DNA of 36,671 bases from a virus (Duplodnaviria > Caudoviricetes). This document shows positions 442-36,671 of the stretch, in pieces (within the stretch, counting starts at the first letter, position 1; every line of letters starts with the position of its first letter). Under the pieces are notes generated by a model that was not told the DNA's origin, did not search any database, and worked only from the letters and a program-made list of their open reading frames with translations. The translations under genes and the position numbers were made by a program. The stretch spans positions 1-36,671 of IMG/VR virus record IMGVR_UViG_3300025018_000309; one strand, given 5' to 3'.

Positions 442-476
442 ATTAAGTTCCTCAACAAGGTTTAGTTTAGGAGTTC

Positions 477-519
477 ATTCTATACCGGTTCATTAAGACC
501 TGTAAACACCTAATTACAA
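477..519 (-). promoter_or_regulatory. Sigma70-like promoter TTTACA-18-TAGAAT with overlapping TGTAA-N8-TTACA palindrome
   Basis: 19-mer TTGTAATTAGGTGTTTACA, also present at 26571-26589. Confidence 0.7.
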
Positions 520-520
520 A

Positions 521-2605
521 TTAATATTTCTTTCTTCGCTTAGTTCTCACAGCTTTGCCCTCTAAGTGCGCGATAATAGCCTGGGGTTGTGCTCTCACGA
601 TCCACTCCTCTACGTTCCTGACGGCGTAGTACCTTGCCTGAGTCCCGTCGGATAACCTAACCGGGCGCCCATCACACACTTGCCTGACACCTGCTCTGGA
701 TAGCTCGCGGCCAAGTCCGTTCGCTGTCGTCCCGGTCCTTCCTTCAGGGTCATAGTACATGAGTAGTTCCTTACTAGTAAACAGGTCCTTGGTAGCTTCA
801 ATCTCTCCTATTCTTAGGACTTGCTTGGGTGTTGCTATGAGTTGTCGTACCCATGATCCTAGATCAGATCTGCCAGTATTGATCATGCGCTCCTTCGCCG
901 CTGTTCTGTAAGCAGGTGCTGCTGGGTTGAAGCCACCGAGGTCCAAGTCCAGTAGGTATTGGAACACAGCAGACGAACCTCCTGAGTCCAACCAAAGCAT
1001 GTACTCGGCGTAGAATTCCTCATCCTTAGGGCTCACTAACACCTCGTGGATAAAGAATCGGCGGTCGTCGTCTTCTAAGAAAAACGAGTCTGGATGCTGA
1101 GACGTAAATAAATAGTTAATACAGTCTGGCACGACGTAGCTTGGTGTGTACTTCGCGTTGATCCGTAACTCTTTCTGGGTGATCATCTTTTTAAGGAAGT
1201 CAGCATCCTGCCTCTTATTACTACCCGTTACGTCATCCCCCATGACGAACTGCTTCGACTCTGCCCATTCATTAAAATTGTTGTGTAAGTCCATCTGGTT
1301 AATCTCAGTAAAGTTCTTACCGTAGATCTTGCCGAGCGTGTAGCCTATAAGAGACTTACCTGTACCGTGCTTGATGCCATGGATAACGGCAGAGCTGAAC
1401 ATCTTAACACCCGGATACTGGAGAGGGTACGCACACCAGCGGAGCAGCCACTCCTTCGCTTCAGGTTCTGCACCCGCAAATAGATGGTCGACAAGCTCTA
1501 TGAATAGGCTAACCTCTGCTTTCTTAGGCTTGCATCCCCAACCTGGCCAGATGTTAAACCCTTCGTCGATGAATTTCTCCTTCCCCGGCTCGTATGTCAG
1601 GCGAGGAGACTCTAACCTCAAAGGCCATTTCAACCAAGCACTCGCTGCTGACACCGTCTTGTAAGAGATGGTTCCATCGGGCTTAATCTGCCGTTCTTGG
1701 TAATTAGATGACGATTCTAAATGTTCTTTAAAGGCACCAGGGGAGACTTTGTTCTCCATGTCCCGCTGGTCAATAATAAGACCTGGCTTTCTTATATAGA
1801 CGTACTTCTCATTGAGCTGCCATAGTGGTGCCGATAACCCAAGAGGCTCTGCTGACGTTAATAACTCTCTGAACATAACATTCGCAGATGGCCCTGCATG
1901 TACAAGGAAGTCGTCTAAGCCTACTTTGTCTAAACCTGGTAGTTGAGGTAATGCTACTAAATAAACGAAACTACCGCGTCTTTGGAGCTCGGTGGCGAAC
2001 GTCTTTAATGCTGCGCACACCATAGGATTGCTGCGGTAGTCCGAATCAAAGCAGAGATAGACATTCCGCTTCCGCCACTCAATCGGCTCTAACGATGGAA
2101 GCCAGTCTAATCCGAGTCTGTTGCTCCGCCAATTGTACACACCGCCAAGCCCTAAGGTTGGGAAACCTTCTTTACAGGCCTTTGCTGCTTTGAGTTCACC
2201 CTCAGTTATAATCAAGGGATCGTTTGGATTCTTGCACAACTCTTCCCACCCGCCAAAGTTCTGAGGGTAATAGGCAACTGGTGCGGTGTTAGGTTCTTGA
2301 ACGTACCTGACTTGCTTCTTCGCGCTTATGGCATCGAAATCTGTTGGAGTTTCTAAATAGCGGAGCCGGTAGAACGGGGAAGATTCATGCCAGTCTAATA
2401 ATGGTTCCCCTAGATGGGAGATGTACTCTATCTTAAGAGAACAAAGCTGCTTGAATGAAGTATGCAACTTGGATGTTTGCTGGCTTGAAAGAGGACTGAT
2501 GTAAAGTTGCTTAGCGTCTTTCAATGTTAAGCCTGATGTTAAGAGTTTCTTTTCTGCGAGGCTTATCGCTTTCTGGTCTACGTTACGTCGAGTTTTACGT
2601 GCCAT
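521..2605 (-). CDS. Primase-helicase (N-terminal DUF3854/Toprim-like domain, C-terminal SF3-like P-loop helicase)
   Basis: LIITEGELKA, LGLGGVYNW, VYLCFDSD, KVGLDDF; Walker A GIKHGTGKS; Walker B VMGDD; DDDRRF. Confidence 0.88.
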   Translation of the reverse strand: MARKTRRNVDQKAISLAEKKLLTSGLTLKDAKQLYISPLSSQQTSKLHTSFKQLCSLKIEYISHLGEPLLDWHESSPFYRLRYLETPTDFDAISAKKQVRYVQEPNTAPVAYYPQNFGGWEELCKNPNDPLIITEGELKAAKACKEGFPTLGLGGVYNWRSNRLGLDWLPSLEPIEWRKRNVYLCFDSDYRSNPMVCAALKTFATELQRRGSFVYLVALPQLPGLDKVGLDDFLVHAGPSANVMFRELLTSAEPLGLSAPLWQLNEKYVYIRKPGLIIDQRDMENKVSPGAFKEHLESSSNYQERQIKPDGTISYKTVSAASAWLKWPLRLESPRLTYEPGKEKFIDEGFNIWPGWGCKPKKAEVSLFIELVDHLFAGAEPEAKEWLLRWCAYPLQYPGVKMFSSAVIHGIKHGTGKSLIGYTLGKIYGKNFTEINQMDLHNNFNEWAESKQFVMGDDVTGSNKRQDADFLKKMITQKELRINAKYTPSYVVPDCINYLFTSQHPDSFFLEDDDRRFFIHEVLVSPKDEEFYAEYMLWLDSGGSSAVFQYLLDLDLGGFNPAAPAYRTAAKERMINTGRSDLGSWVRQLIATPKQVLRIGEIEATKDLFTSKELLMYYDPEGRTGTTANGLGRELSRAGVRQVCDGRPVRLSDGTQARYYAVRNVEEWIVRAQPQAIIAHLEGKAVRTKRRKKY

Positions 2606-2685
2606 GACTACCTTCTTGTATTACTACCACCAATTAACCTCCGCCCTCAGCTGCCGGAGAACCTTCTTTTATACCTCAGCAATAA

Positions 2686-2790
2686 TAAAAGAAGCAGCTC
2701 GAAGCGCGCCAACTTGCTGAGGGATGGTGGCATGAGGACTGTATGGCAGGACACAGTTGGACATCATGACAGGCTTCGAGCTGCTACGGA
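2686..2790 (-). ncRNA. Putative structured leader / antisense small RNA upstream of the primase
   Basis: Perfect 13-bp inverted repeat 2693-2705/2773-2785, inner stem 2709-2714/2755-2760, followed by a U-rich tract on the - strand. Confidence 0.5.
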
Positions 2791-2849
2791 ATATAGTAGT
2801 TCAGAATGCGTAGCAAGTACATTTGGCCAGAAATGATGGGTAAAGTGAT

Positions 2850-3110
2850 TTAGAATCAAGCACTTAGGTGGTAAAACTACAGAATACTGCTCTGCTACAG
2901 ATTGCTACAGCTACACCAGTTTCTACTCTCCTTTCTCTCTCTACTCTCTACTACTACTACTTCTTCTTCTTCTTCTTCTAAAGAAGAAAGAGTAGTATAT
3001 GTAGTAGAGTATTTAAATTTCAATAATATCAATAGGTTACGCTCCAGAATCCGCTACAGATATGAATTCTTTCCCTGTAGCGGCTGTAGTTATGTGTATT
3101 TCGCGCATTT
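2850..3110. other. Putative replication origin / control region between the divergent arms
   Basis: Repeated CTACAG/CTGTAG motifs, (CTA)n(CTT)n tract with an inverted counterpart, two WATCAANNNNTTR IHF-consensus matches (2854-2866, 3027-3039), next to the primase gene. Confidence 0.5.
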
Positions 3111-3141: not shown

Positions 3142-3170
3142 TTTACATTCCTGGTTCTGCGCGCCATAAT
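3142..3170 (+). promoter_or_regulatory. Sigma70-like promoter for the packaging/structural arm
   Basis: TTTACA-17-CATAAT. Confidence 0.65.
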
Positions 3171-22063: not shown

Positions 22064-22558
22064 CTAGTCAAGCCCTACTTCAACCCACTTTCTTCCAGAT
22101 GATTCCCACAATTTCTGAGCATCCTTGTGTGGATACTTAGACTTGAACGCTATCACCTCACAACTAGTGTTAAGAAGCAGCTTCGTACAAGTAATACACG
22201 GGCTTACTGTCACGTAGGCAATATGTATCTGATATACATCCCTACACTGCAGCAACGCGTTCTGCTCTGCGTGTATCGCCTGACAAGCGTCTAAGTTAGT
22301 ACCACTAGGAGACGTAGCACCTTCACAAGAATTTGGGTAGACCGGCACGGCATACTCTCCTGTGCATCCGTGCTCAAAAGACTCCCCTGAAGGCTCATTG
22401 CAATGTGGTAGTCCTGCAGCTACGCCGTTATAACCAGTAGCGATTACATGGCCGCGGCGGTTCAGCATAACACACCCAACGCTTCGACGGCAGCAGGTGG
22501 ACCTTTTGGCTGTCAACTCTGCCATCTGCATAGCCCACTGGTGTCTACTGATTCTCAT
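22064..22558 (-). CDS. dCMP deaminase
   Basis: RSTC, VGC, ATGYNG, HAEQNA, SPCITC zinc-deaminase motifs; likely start ATG 22558. Confidence 0.92.
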   Translation of the reverse strand: MRISRHQWAMQMAELTAKRSTCCRRSVGCVMLNRRGHVIATGYNGVAAGLPHCNEPSGESFEHGCTGEYAVPVYPNSCEGATSPSGTNLDACQAIHAEQNALLQCRDVYQIHIAYVTVSPCITCTKLLLNTSCEVIAFKSKYPHKDAQKLWESSGRKWVEVGLD

Positions 22559-23354
22559 TAGCTTCTCCGACTCTGGTTTCCCACCAGCGTAACCACCAAT
22601 CACCAGGTCTTGAGTATCTGAGATCAGATAGCCTCTTCATAAGAGCAAAAGTGCTTCGGAACATCTTCTCCGGAGTTTTAGGTTGTAGACCAGGCAATGA
22701 GGATTCAAGACATGCGTTTGCGGCTTCAAAGTTTCTTGCGTATAGGTGAGACGAGGCAGCAGTTAGATACAAGTTACCAGGCTCAATAGAGACACCCTCA
22801 GCTGTCAACAAGCAACAAACTAAGTGACTGAGCATGCTGAAGTTGAAAACGTCGTAGGGAACCCCTAGCCATACATCAGAAGATCTCATGAAGACGTTAC
22901 AATTCAGTTTACCCTGTCTGATATTGAAGAACACCGCAATGGTACACGGCACGTCTTTAGTCTCAGGAGGGTTCTCTCGCCAGATCGTTAATCCGGCTTG
23001 TCGCGAATCCTGGTCCTGAACAAGTTTGTCTACCACGTACTGGAGCTGGCCGACAATCTTAGGGCCGTAGGCCCCAAAGAAAGTCTTACCATCATCACTG
23101 AACTGGGAAATATGCTTATTAAACGGCGCGATACCTTCAACCGAATCATCTCCGTTAAGAATCCAGTATGCTTCTGCCGTCATGAACGTATAGCTTAGTT
23201 TACGCTCACTCAAGTCTAGAACAGGGCGGCGCATATCGACTACCATTGTTCTCTGGAGTACCTCCTTCGTCTCTTGACCACGAGGAGATACTGTTGAGCC
23301 ATACGACATAATATCAGCCAAGCTGCTAATCCAAATAGAAGTGAAATTATCCAT
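22545..23354 (-). CDS. Thymidylate synthase homolog, predicted dCMP (hydroxy)methylase type
   Basis: SPRG, FSDDG...GAYG, DSRQA, catalytic DVPCT, MRSSDVWLGVPYD (Asp in place of the ThyA Asn), SSHLY. Confidence 0.85.
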   Translation of the reverse strand: MDNFTSIWISSLADIMSYGSTVSPRGQETKEVLQRTMVVDMRRPVLDLSERKLSYTFMTAEAYWILNGDDSVEGIAPFNKHISQFSDDGKTFFGAYGPKIVGQLQYVVDKLVQDQDSRQAGLTIWRENPPETKDVPCTIAVFFNIRQGKLNCNVFMRSSDVWLGVPYDVFNFSMLSHLVCCLLTAEGVSIEPGNLYLTAASSHLYARNFEAANACLESSLPGLQPKTPEKMFRSTFALMKRLSDLRYSRPGDWWLRWWETRVGEANENQ

Positions 23355-23724
23355 GACTTTTCTCCGTGGATGCAATATAGAACCCAGCATAGTTGATAAT
23401 ATCAAGGGCAGTGTCAGCCAGACCTTCGAAGTTGCTGTCTTTACCGTCCAGCTGCTTTTGGACAATAGAGTTGAACCGCTGCGCTTTAGTATGTAACATT
23501 TGCGCGTAGCTCACTGGACCAAACGGGAAATAGACAGAACGGTCTACTTTATGGGGGTTCTGATCTTTCCCGTGGTTGTAGTCTTGGCTCTTTCTGAGGC
23601 ACAGCAAAGCTGCAGAGGCCAGAGCACCAGGATGCCCACCACGCAGCTCTAGTTCTTGGAGCAATTCCTCAGTTGAAGCCTCTGCTATTGACTGGAAGAG
23701 CGAGCCCTGCTTTACTTTTCCCAT
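23347..23724 (-). CDS. Nucleotide-modification-associated helical protein (DUF1599/Nmad1-like)
   Basis: RKSQDY...TKAQRF...EGLADTALDIINYA. Confidence 0.7.
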   Translation of the reverse strand: MGKVKQGSLFQSIAEASTEELLQELELRGGHPGALASAALLCLRKSQDYNHGKDQNPHKVDRSVYFPFGPVSYAQMLHTKAQRFNSIVQKQLDGKDSNFEGLADTALDIINYAGFYIASTEKSHG

Positions 23725-24110
23725 GAGAGTATCTCCTTAAGCTTATCCTCAGGACCTGTCCAGCCAGCAGGCTTGACGACGTCTAGAGTAGTGCCGCGCT
23801 TCGACTGTCCTTCTGAAGTAGCACGCTCTTTCGCCATATTCGCGTCTTGCACAGCACCTTCGCCTACGGCCCATTGTTTAGGATTGATCCCCATGAACAA
23901 AGCAGTTCCATGGGCGACGTAGACAAGGTCGAGTAAAGCATCAAAAGCCTTGACTCTATCGCCGTCCTCTAAAGCTTCGTGAAGCTCGTCCAACTCCTCT
24001 TGCAGGAACCCAAGCCGGAAAGCCTGGGCATGACTATCACCTGTCAATTGATCTGTTTCCCCATCTGGCAGACCAAACTTCTTATGAAAATCCAGTACAT
24101 CTCCTATCAT
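23712..24110 (-). CDS. MazG-like all-alpha NTP pyrophosphohydrolase
   Basis: DFHKKFG, LQEELDEL, DALLDLVYVAHG, ANMAK, VVKPAGW. Confidence 0.88.
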   Translation of the reverse strand: MIGDVLDFHKKFGLPDGETDQLTGDSHAQAFRLGFLQEELDELHEALEDGDRVKAFDALLDLVYVAHGTALFMGINPKQWAVGEGAVQDANMAKERATSEGQSKRGTTLDVVKPAGWTGPEDKLKEILSWEK

Positions 24111-24916
24111 TTTACACCTCGTTTAGCGCGTCGTGACTGACGCTTGTTTTCAAGTGGCTTACGGCAGATCCAGAGATTATTGCGTGAATGATCTGGGTAC
24201 AGTGGCCCAAAAATATTACTGACGGCGTCATTGTCGAAATACTCACTGAGAGCTCGTCTCAACTGATCTACCTCCCCTTTACTAATACCGAGACCTGGGG
24301 TTACATGGTCTGCTTTACCTATATGCTTGATATCCATGAACGTGCCAAAGCGTCGCTCAACAGCGAACCCGGCGGCCTCAGTCTCATCTTGGAGCTCATC
24401 TACGTAGTACTCGTGGATATGGTTTGCCGCATGGCGCTTACCGTCGTAGACTGGCGTAGACATCAGCATTACGCCACCCGGCTTTAAACAAGCGAGCGAA
24501 GCTCTAAGAAGCTTCCGCCCTGCTTCAACTGGCATGTGCTCGATAACTTCAAAGTGCACTACTACGTCAAACAACCCGTGCTTGTCAACCAGTTCTTTAT
24601 GGCGAGTAGTAAAGTCGAACTCACCGTAAAAGTCAAGGCGCTGGCTCTTTGACTCTTTAAGCTTGTTAAGATCAACACCCACGTAGCGGTCAACATGCGC
24701 TGCAGCTCCGCCAGTCAGGATCTTGCTTAACGGCTTCTCTTCGCCGCACCCTACTTCTAAGACTGAGTCTTTAGGGGTTATGAAGCGACGAGCGAATGAC
24801 CAACGGAAGAAATGCGCAGAGTAATCTCTGTGCAAAGTCTTCCCATGGCCGTTAATTTTAAGTTGTGTAGTATCGAATTCATTACTACCTCGTTTAGACT
24901 TTCGTGTTATCGGCAT
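24107..24916 (-). CDS. Class I SAM-dependent methyltransferase (small-molecule type)
   Basis: VLEVGCGE, YVGVD, FDVVVHFEVIEHM, LKPGGVMLMSTP, HIHEY. Confidence 0.88.
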   Translation of the reverse strand: MPITRKSKRGSNEFDTTQLKINGHGKTLHRDYSAHFFRWSFARRFITPKDSVLEVGCGEEKPLSKILTGGAAAHVDRYVGVDLNKLKESKSQRLDFYGEFDFTTRHKELVDKHGLFDVVVHFEVIEHMPVEAGRKLLRASLACLKPGGVMLMSTPVYDGKRHAANHIHEYYVDELQDETEAAGFAVERRFGTFMDIKHIGKADHVTPGLGISKGEVDQLRRALSEYFDNDAVSNIFGPLYPDHSRNNLWICRKPLENKRQSRRAKRGVK

Positions 24917-26507: not shown

Positions 26508-26547
26508 ATTCGTAATTCCTCAGCAAGGTTTTGTTGATCTCAAGGCC

Positions 26548-26589
26548 ATTCTAATCTATCTCTACTGTGTTGTAAACACCTAATTACAA
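26548..26589 (-). promoter_or_regulatory. Promoter TTTACA-17-TAGAAT with TGTAA-N8-TTACA palindrome
   Basis: Same 19-mer as 501-519. Confidence 0.75.
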
Positions 26590-26590
26590 C

Positions 26591-33913: not shown

Positions 33914-33955
33914 ACTTTAATCTTTTACGCCTAGTTTGTAAACACCTACTTTCAA
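33914..33955 (-). promoter_or_regulatory. Promoter TTTACA-17-TAAAGT with degenerate palindrome TGAAA-N8-TTACA
   Basis: Shares TAGGTGTTTACA with the promoters at 501 and 26571. Confidence 0.65.
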
Positions 33956-35968: not shown

Positions 35969-36022
35969 GATTCTTTCCTCGTTAGTTAAGTGATGCCTCA
36001 GGTATTCCCTCAGCTGGTTAGT

Positions 36023-36064
36023 ACTTTAATATAGTTCAATCTACTTGTAAATTTGGTGTTACAA
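36023..36064 (-). promoter_or_regulatory. Promoter TTTACA-17-TAAAGT with TGTAA-N8-TTACA palindrome
   Basis: TTGTAACACCAAATTTACAA on the - strand. Confidence 0.7.
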
Positions 36065-36256
36065 TTACATAGCCTGTTGCTTCATCACCGCTGGAAGATC
36101 TAATTCCAAGACACCTAGAATGTCCACGTACCCAGAAATTAGAGTTAGGTTAAACTTCTCTACAGCCTCAACGACTGAATCCGCCACGATTGTCTCATGG
36201 ACAACTAAGGTGCCATCAATATACGTGATATCGTAAATGAAAGCACCCATGACCAC
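36065..36256 (-). CDS. Hypothetical protein
   Basis: ORF in operon orientation; weak SD. Confidence 0.45.
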   Translation of the reverse strand: MVMGAFIYDITYIDGTLVVHETIVADSVVEAVEKFNLTLISGYVDILGVLELDLPAVMKQQAM

Positions 36257-36472: not shown

Positions 36473-36671
36473 ATCGCTTGCTCCCAGCGTTTGAATAATT
36501 CTGACAGCTCATTGGTCATTTCTTTCATTGCTGACCATGCTGCTGACCATGCTGACCATGCTGACCATGCTGACCATGCTGACCATGCTGACCATGCTGA
36601 CCATGCTGACCATGCTGACCATGCTGACCATGCTGACCATGCTGACCATGCTGCTGATAGGTTGTCTTGAG
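36469..36671 (-). CDS. 3' part of the WSA-repeat protein (...WSAAWSAMKEMTNELSELFKRWEQAI*)
   Basis: In frame with the 441-1 part; TGA at 36469-36471; total 519 nt. Confidence 0.8.
   Translation of the reverse strand, partial: QDNLSAAWSAWSAWSAWSAWSAWSAWSAWSAWSAWSAWSAWSAAWSAMKEMTNELSELFKRWEQAI
36530..36649. repeat. 9-bp tandem repeat (GCTGACCAT)n: 12 contiguous units at 36542-36649 plus one at 36530-36538; encodes (WSA)n on the - strand
   Basis: Read directly from the sequence; the same array appears at 1-103. Confidence 0.97.
36547..36671. repeat. Direct terminal repeat, right copy
   Basis: Identical to 1-125. Confidence 0.92.

Follow-up and report, generated by a model that had tools for sequence, protein, structure and literature searches.

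A conserved RNA in the primase leader is a probable antisense repressor of early operons in phages without detected integrase or repressor genes

A predicted RNA of 93 nt, encoded 5' of the primase gene (positions 2693-2785, minus strand) in the window (the whole stretch of viral DNA that was analyzed, 36,671 nucleotides), probably acts as an antisense repressor of the C4/CI type. It would accumulate from the primase leader and turn off the primase together with other early operons; on comparative sequence evidence, we give this reading a probability of about 0.7. Because the exposed loop of the RNA is complementary to most early-transcript starts, an RNA repressor of the early program is likely. 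As judged from alignments, the RNA represents a family that is widespread before the primase in phages without detected integrase or repressor genes and is lacking from Rfam. The mechanism would be of a known kind, that of C4 and CI; what is new is the predicted multi-operon regulon in phages regarded as virulent. A preliminary description of this DNA had proposed an RNA-based switch that coordinates early genes and primase in a phage with no visible repressor, and the comparative evidence favors that proposal.

Structure and conservation of the primase-leader RNA

The window derives from a ~36.5-kb phage genome whose ends overlap. Its plus strand carries a podovirus-type virion module, and its minus strand carries genes for the primase-helicase (521-2605), ligase, PolA, a helicase, exonucleases, and nucleotide metabolism; the RNA element is encoded in the interval that separates the primase from the divergent packaging genes. 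Comparison of 50 ORFs with PHROGs and 24 with Pfam revealed no integrase and no CI-type repressor in the window, and a weak HTH match was obtained for one ORF of 76 aa. The features surrounding the RNA are as follows.

521-2605, minus strand: primase-helicase, 694 aa (DUF3854 plus DUF5906/VapE-like; PHROG 1156)
2600-2631, minus strand: primase ribosome-binding and start region (GGUGGUA 2625-2631, AUGGCA 2600-2605), partner of the second guide by duplex prediction
2644-2651, minus strand: own-leader site 2, GCUGAGGG, 39 nt 5' of the primase start (sequence; flank covariation)
2674-2682, minus strand: own-leader site 1, UUGCUGAGG, a hairpin loop directly 3' of the RNA (sequence; pairing conservation)
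2690-2785, minus strand: structured RNA with terminal stem P1, variable inner domain, seed hairpin, and 3-nt tail UCU, NCC in most relatives (fold, alignment, covariation)
2693-2705, minus strand: 3' arm of P1 (fold; covariation)
2709-2727, minus strand: seed hairpin CCAUC/GUUGG with the 9-nt loop CCUCAGCAA at 2714-2722 (covariation across relatives)
2738-2757, minus strand: inner hairpin, its loop region UGCCAU (2743-2748) being complementary to the primase start AUGGCA (fold and duplex prediction)
2773-2785, minus strand: 5' arm of P1 (fold; covariation)
2793-2821, minus strand: sigma-70-type promoter of RNA and primase, -35 TGTACT at 2816-2821, -10 TACTAT at 2793-2798 (sequence)
3142-3170, plus strand: divergent late promoter before the packaging genes, leader without a site (sequence, promoter scan)

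The preliminary description had placed here an element of ~95 nt closed by a perfect 13-bp stem and followed by a U tract. The stem (2773-2785 paired with 2693-2705) and the tract (U-rich, UCUUUUAUU) stood, whereas the length had to be corrected to 93 nt. The element starts with A, ends in the UCU tail, and folds with z = -4.27, compared to only -1.45 for a wider stretch of 161 nt; it scores 53.9 bits with our own covariance model, by construction. The seed hairpin is missing from the minimum-energy fold of the window element and was assigned by covariation, and the seed in the window is predicted to be mostly unpaired (0.48-0.97 per base). Transcription is predicted to start at or just before the stem. 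The window -35 is weak (TGTACT), most relatives having TTTACA or TTTACG at this position. A scan of the window called no canonical intrinsic terminator, and relatives have a short U tract; transcription may still end early in the U-rich tract. Identity as a tRNA or tmRNA was rejected, as ARAGORN found 0 genes in the window.

A low-complexity pyrimidine/purine inverted repeat (2930-3011, CT-rich and then AG-rich) separates the primase and packaging promoters; similar tracts are present at the same position in L001, L002, L003, PW916, AXL3, and L091, and such a tract may mark an origin of replication or a site for packaging. Gene 441 spans the assembly junction (1-441 and 36509-36671) and encodes ~170 aa comprising an Imm5-like domain and then SAW units encoded by 9-bp tandem repeats, the number of which is uncertain because the ends of the assembly overlap. 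Genes for a methyltransferase, a MazG-like protein, a hydrolase, thymidylate synthase, and dCMP deaminase lie at 22064-24916 in a layout common to AXL3; this cluster may serve modified pyrimidine synthesis.

The three nearest primase relatives (81, 80, and 64% identity) all possess the element, and in the 64% relative the stem sequence is unrelated while the seed and both downstream sites are the same. The element is also present in Pseudoxanthomonas phage PW916, Stenotrophomonas phage AXL3, and a Manatee Spring siphovirus. Among IMG/VR sequences, 87 loci matched a pattern of the seed plus two sites, and this primase lay downstream in 58 of them. In a set selected by primase, the seed core and a downstream site were found in 58/81 distinct upstream regions, a fraction that is biased because the query alignment was mostly built from pattern-selected primases; by eye, the RNA is also present in 8 of the other 23 regions, where the sites are inexact or missing or the seed differs from the standard one. 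A set of 149 oriented loci yielded 130 with seed and stem and 50 that were non-redundant below 80% identity. Anatomy was counted in 46 of these, leaving out four in which the script mis-called the stem.

A promoter of the form TTTAC[AG]-N17-TAnnnT has its -10 element 6-8 nt 5' of the stem in 32 of the 46 RNAs (no such pattern in 12, other spacings in 2). The first base of the RNA is a purine in 42 (G in 38), and the preceding base is a pyrimidine in 43. Bacterial transcription commonly starts at a purine that follows a pyrimidine, so these bases fit a primary transcription start. The 3' tail of the stem is NCC in 36/46 (ACC in 27, other NCC in 9) and is followed by a pyrimidine run. A stem with an NCC tail fits an RNase P substrate, and the promoter spacing suggests a primary 5' end.

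Covariation supports the conserved fold, a point on which the preliminary description had called for a check: the score was 0.618 compared to 0.221, a value reached by none of 500 shuffles and above that of every slid control. All 15 pairs, including 10/10 in P1, have changed on both sides (plain MAFFT alignment, 35/50 loci). The covarying terminal stem is 12-13 bp long across the family. For the seed hairpin, 169/200 cells were paired compared to 103 in permutations (maximum 123), and for the site 1 hairpin with its GCUGAG hexaloop the values were 137/170 and 81 (34 loci with two exact sites). A fixed-register hairpin for site 2 was weak (best of four registers 86/170, compared to 62 and a permutation maximum of 83). 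Nor was the seed buried, which would have counted against the proposal; it is predicted to be exposed, with a mean unpaired probability for the core of 0.72 compared to 0.37 for the whole RNA (n = 46), and 29/46 RNAs reach at least 0.7. The loop CCUCAGCAA is nearly invariant, and both own-leader sites are exact in 34/50 loci; L128, L163, and L165 have no exact own-leader site before the primase.

A leader uORF coupled to the primase was rejected (21/44 only, in mixed frames and with no shared overlap). L019, L072, L075, and L037 have an extra gene between the RNA leader and the primase. Two distant primase relatives (L177:6290-6430 and L313:9756-9930) have a promoter and a long closing stem with no recognizable seed; their leaders are possibly other RNA families at the same position. 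We found no description of this RNA in the literature searched, and its fold may be among the 8,495 unnamed IMG/VR candidates that the excerpted text of PMC10690425 gives without function. The excerpted AXL3 and PW916 papers (PMC7504290 and PMC9414467) leave the RNA unmentioned, and the words "promoter" and "repress" are absent from both texts.

Target sites at early promoters

Matches to the seed occur in the leaders of early genes, several of which share a promoter type.

450-506, minus strand: early promoter (477-506) and target CUUGUUGAGG (450-459, one G-U) over the SD of gene 441 (sequence)
26518-26576, minus strand: early promoter (26548-26576) and target CUUGCUGAGG (26518-26527, 10/10) over the SD of gene 26507 (sequence)
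33914-33942, minus strand: fourth early promoter, before gene 33883 and the DNA polymerase cluster, leader without a site here (promoter comparison)
36006-36051, minus strand: early promoter (36023-36051) and target GCUGAGGGA (36006-36014) near the transcript start, ~40 nt before gene 35968 (sequence)

These three distant matches and the two own-leader sites had been noted before, and all five sets of coordinates proved correct. So did the claim that each distant target follows a TTTACA promoter (501-506 for gene 441; 26571-26576 for gene 26507, which heads the nucleotide-metabolism cluster; 36046-36051 for gene 35968). No site follows the fourth TTTACA (33937-33942) here, but L001 and L003 do have one in the corresponding leader. 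The window contains 9 copies of CTTGCTGAGG with at most one mismatch, compared to 2.69 expected (0/100 shuffles reach 9), and 11 copies of GCTGAGG compared to 5.2 (1/100 shuffles). The excess over chance in the window alone is real but modest.

Comparison across loci was far more telling. In RNA-bearing loci, GCTGAGG lies at most 70 nt from 71/87 downstream (early) promoters, compared to 5/31 on the opposite strand and 1/5 upstream; the opposite-strand matches mostly look like inverted early islands, and packaging-gene promoters in these loci were without the site. In a second batch of 116 regions, which partly overlaps the first, sites were present at 75/101 promoters of phages with the standard seed and at 2/84 of those without, both exceptions being in phages with an RNA bearing the seed CCUCAGCC. 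The preliminary description had cautioned that GAGG is itself an SD sequence, which could explain the matches. We compared GAGG-type ribosome sites in 49 RNA-bearing and 54 RNA-lacking loci: GCT preceded GAGG at 39/51 promoter-proximal early genes in the former and at 0/15 in the latter (Fisher p = 6e-8), at 2/125 sites on the late strand, and at 27/188 (bearing) and 4/215 (lacking) other early genes. The 39/51, set against 0/15 and 2/125, therefore answers this caveat; the matches lie far above the SD background. In AXL3, five annotated early genes have the site 14-16 nt upstream of their starts. Target leaders typically have a single site each. Among the distant sites, 59/77 are at SD distance from a start codon and 18/77 are not, so ribosome occlusion cannot account for every site.

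When mapped on a tree of 109 primases, the RNA occurs in a single large clade only (15 changes, compared to at least 27 with shuffled labels). Nested members that lack the RNA (L130, L136, L257, L244/L262, L291, and L156) have 0 sites at 3-6 promoters each. By this phylogenetic comparison, the RNA and its target sites have been lost together several times.

Three further features of the leaders were observed. A second leader class (window 35985-36014; L001, L003, L094, L096, L100, L128, and L047) has the site ~7 nt after the -10 element, in a conserved small hairpin, GC-UGA-GGG...CCC-NAN-GC, that lies 30-40 nt before the SD. Many early leaders (for example, in L009, L018, L133, L154, and PW916) have a 5' hairpin, CACG[GA]UC...GA[CU]CG, before the target, possibly a stabilizing or presenting element. 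The motif TTGTAATTAGGTG precedes TTTACA at window positions 507-520, 26577-26590, 33943-33951, and 36052-36068, and also occurs in G038 and at PW916/AXL3-type promoters; it is a possible UP element or protein site.

Evidence for pairing and the proposed mechanism

Variation at the sites points to RNA pairing. The commonest near-miss sites are both of the G-U-compatible changes (GCTGGGG, 4; GTTGAGG, 3), which account for 7/15 observations among 21 possible changes; the window site at 450-459 is one of these two variants. Flanks of the distant targets covary with the RNA at +1 (47/77 compared to 35.4, p = 0.006) and +2 (36/77 compared to 21.3, p = 0.002), p-values that, like the other permutation statistics given here, are optimistic because the loci are related, and the site 2 flank does so as well (30/42 compared to 15.3). 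The covarying pairs join the bases just 3' of the site to those just 5' of the seed; no significant covariation was detected at -1 to -4 on the 5' side of the targets. The seed-target duplex itself is short, at 7-10 bp.

Seed and site have also changed together. In L155, the seed CCUCGGCAG is matched by own-leader sites CUGCCGA(G/C)G, and in L229, the loop CUAAGCGG is matched by the own-leader site CCGCUUAG. In G038, a complete genome with the L229 primase, the distant leaders have not, contrary to prediction, switched to the variant GCUUAG; of three early promoters, one keeps GCUGAGG and two have neither site. Because the G038 leaders are unswitched, compensation in the seed core is seen in cis only. 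L155 has no downstream promoter on its contig, and a search with its primase returned one distant relative only. A scan of 25/64 of the collection for the variant CCTCGGCA gave 120 loci, none with this primase. The G038 RNA (L451:9827-9975) is rearranged, with seed-like segments CCUCAGCC in the inner domain and CUAAGCGG in the usual loop; it retains a partly paired CCUCAGC copy in the inner domain, and together with its downstream leader it has a more stable alternative fold. With its two seeds, this RNA may divide control in cis from control in trans.

A further segment, variable in sequence and located 5' of the seed, covaries with the primase ribosome site and is predicted to pair with the region that extends from site 2 as far as the primase start. 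Cognate duplexes are predicted at -18.5 kcal/mol, compared to -13.4 for non-cognate pairs and -13.0 for an own-genome control (n = 44; 0/10,000 permutations). For 22 loci, the cognate is among the five best of 44; for the window, it is 9th of 44. At distant targets, this second guide was weak (-12.8 compared to -11.6) and was rejected there.

These observations suggest the following mechanism. The RNA would be the first product of the primase promoter, with its 5' end at the primary transcription start, and would be set free by 3' trimming or by early termination in the U-rich tract. Its loop would first kiss GCUGAGG, which the targets show single-stranded or in a hairpin loop. In most early leaders, pairing would then cover the SD and block ribosomes; in the primase leader, it would extend from site 2 to cover both the ribosome site and the start codon. 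As for site 1, it may sequester the seed within the precursor or provide the first docking point. Infection would begin without the RNA, leaving translation of the primase and other early operons unhindered. Since the repressed primase operon is itself the source of the RNA, early genes would be on first and off later, as the RNA accumulates, in a delayed negative-feedback timer like that of P4. Late transcripts without a site would escape, and a superinfecting relative with the same seed would also be silenced. A more ambitious version is that a single RNA with a 7-9-nt seed is the master repressor of the entire early regulon in a virulent-type podo-/siphovirus clade, is lost together with its sites, and can impose a hidden, non-integrated dormancy with immunity against seed-sharing phages; we hold this version tentatively, at somewhat less than even odds.

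Known antisense RNAs, alternative readings, and phage lifestyle

The parallel with C4 and CI drawn in the preliminary description stood for the predicted mode of action and fell for membership in the Rfam C4 family. The C4 covariance model (RF01695, clan CL00128) gave no match in the window, in 6 relatives, or in 5 short loci (E up to 10), of which four or five carry the RNA; positive controls scored 68.8 bits (P1) and 74.9 bits (P4). A search of 40 genomes with this model was also without a match, and its built-in controls gave none either. Our own covariance model failed to match C4 or CI, and the Rfam models c4-a1b1 and isrK had no match in the window or the 6 relatives. On these comparisons, the RNA is a predicted functional counterpart of C4/CI and not a C4-family member; distant common ancestry is possible.

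Antisense RNAs that control plasmid replication, such as IncI Inc RNA and R1 CopA, begin with loop-loop kissing that spreads and blocks translation of a replication protein. Each of those RNAs is transcribed from the strand opposite its single target and matches that target in full, whereas the RNA described here is a same-strand product whose short seed has many targets. P4 CI accumulates with a delay, which gives its control a timing function. Excerpts of the P4 literature (PMC4825925) describe CI, which scores as RF01695 and is associated with seqA and seqC, as excised from the leader of an operon that includes replication genes, as pairing with sites in its own transcript and silencing it, and as able to replace a protein repressor. 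In its origin, its pairing, and its role, CI resembles what is proposed for the present RNA. It differs in that no seqA/IsrK is present upstream here and no kil/icd-like leader ORF was found, P4 integrates, and no multi-operon regulon has been described for CI.

Similarly, C4 of P1/P7 (RF01695) is ~80-90 nt long with a long terminal stem, a G start, and an ACC end, and originates in the leader of its target operon, according to the excerpted text of PMC5320573. The P1 sequence follows the same plan: a stem, ACC, a hairpin target a2, and then b2 over the GAGG SD of icd. The C4 loop pairs over that SD (UUAGUGAGG for P1 b2, UUGCUGAGG here), and both RNAs have two separate pairing segments, here the seed loop and the second guide, in another order than a'/b' and weak at distant targets. 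In contrast, the C4 stem is 17 bp rather than 12-13 bp, and C4 has a1/b1 and a long 5' precursor, whereas here the promoter is directly upstream and there are no upstream targets. Both own-leader sites here match one seed, and a variable guide 5' of the seed hairpin covers the ribosome site. The C4 target is icd-ant; here the predicted targets are the primase and most early operons, with no icd/kil-type leader ORF conserved. Finally, unlike C4 phages, these phages have no detected integrase or C1-type repressor.

If the RNA is an antisense repressor, we somewhat favor a role in timing the lytic cycle over upkeep of a carrier state. In the latter reading, the same RNA and pairing would mainly serve a non-integrated (pseudolysogenic) carrier state and superinfection immunity; it differs in purpose only, and we allot it an appreciable minority share of the probability of the antisense mechanism. 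C4 and CI are immunity factors in the excerpted accounts (PMC5320573 and PMC4825925). Excerpts of the AXL3 report (PMC7504290) describe resistant isolates that were transiently PCR-positive, state that "pseudolysogeny may be possible," and give a latent period of ~2.5 h, and all 12 matches in a bacterial genome collection were on contigs of at most 59 kb, none in a long chromosome contig. The same excerpts call AXL3 virulent, with no stable lysogen obtained, which speaks against a carrier state, as do the clear plaques of both cultured carriers (PMC7504290 and PMC9414467) and the 5-min latent period of PW916, described as lytic in the excerpted PMC9414467. In 40 RNA-bearing genomes (37 IMG/VR records, of which 31 are at least 90% complete, plus 3 from GenBank), there was no ParA, another point against this purpose, and no integrase of the tyrosine type, the type covered; HTH_3, the repressor fold covered, gave no match over the cut-off and one below threshold. 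The near-invariant seed, moreover, provides no heteroimmunity, unlike in P1/P7.

The other readings change the mechanism. The GCUGAGG leaders within one genome are often alike, those of genes 441 and 26507 share flanks, and G038 compensates in cis and not in trans, as would be expected if the RNA were a cis-only primase-leader switch and the distant copies were a preferred SD variant or copied promoter-leader cassettes. The sites follow the RNA across the tree and disappear with it, however, some of them lie off the SD, RNA and site flanks covary, and L163 has 3/3 distant sites with no own-leader site; we judge the cis-only switch improbable. Slightly less probable still is activation, in which pairing would open leader hairpins or stabilize early transcripts in positive feedback. 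It could accommodate the sites off the SD, many of them near the transcript start in the conserved small hairpin, and the weakly supported hairpin at site 2, but most sites cover the SD, and the predicted duplex of the second guide includes the start codon and ribosome site of the primase. Least probable of all is that GCTGAGG/CCTCAGC, which we take to be the BbvCI recognition sequence, is a protein site in DNA or RNA (operator, nicking, or methylation), with the folded element a decoy or incidental. A near-invariant 7-mer repeated near promoters would suit such a site. Nevertheless, the 7-mer is oriented with transcription even on inverted early islands, and its reverse copy is located in an RNA loop supported by covariation. 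Variants of the G-U type occur most often, L155 and L229 have changed seed and site jointly, and no common repressor was found.

Antisense repression by the primase-leader RNA bears on the open question of how phages that have no repressor and do not integrate achieve early shut-off or carrier persistence. It offers a concrete candidate mechanism, with named sites, in AXL3 and PW916, both of which have been proposed for therapy as strictly lytic phages. Control by C4 or CI is confined to one operon; a regulon that is addressed by one seed and takes in the primase and most early promoters would extend this class. If it is true that the RNA blocks infection in trans, an RNA of ~90 nt would confer immunity to a broad clade of phages, and the label "virulent," where it was assigned from missing integrase and repressor genes, would need a second look.
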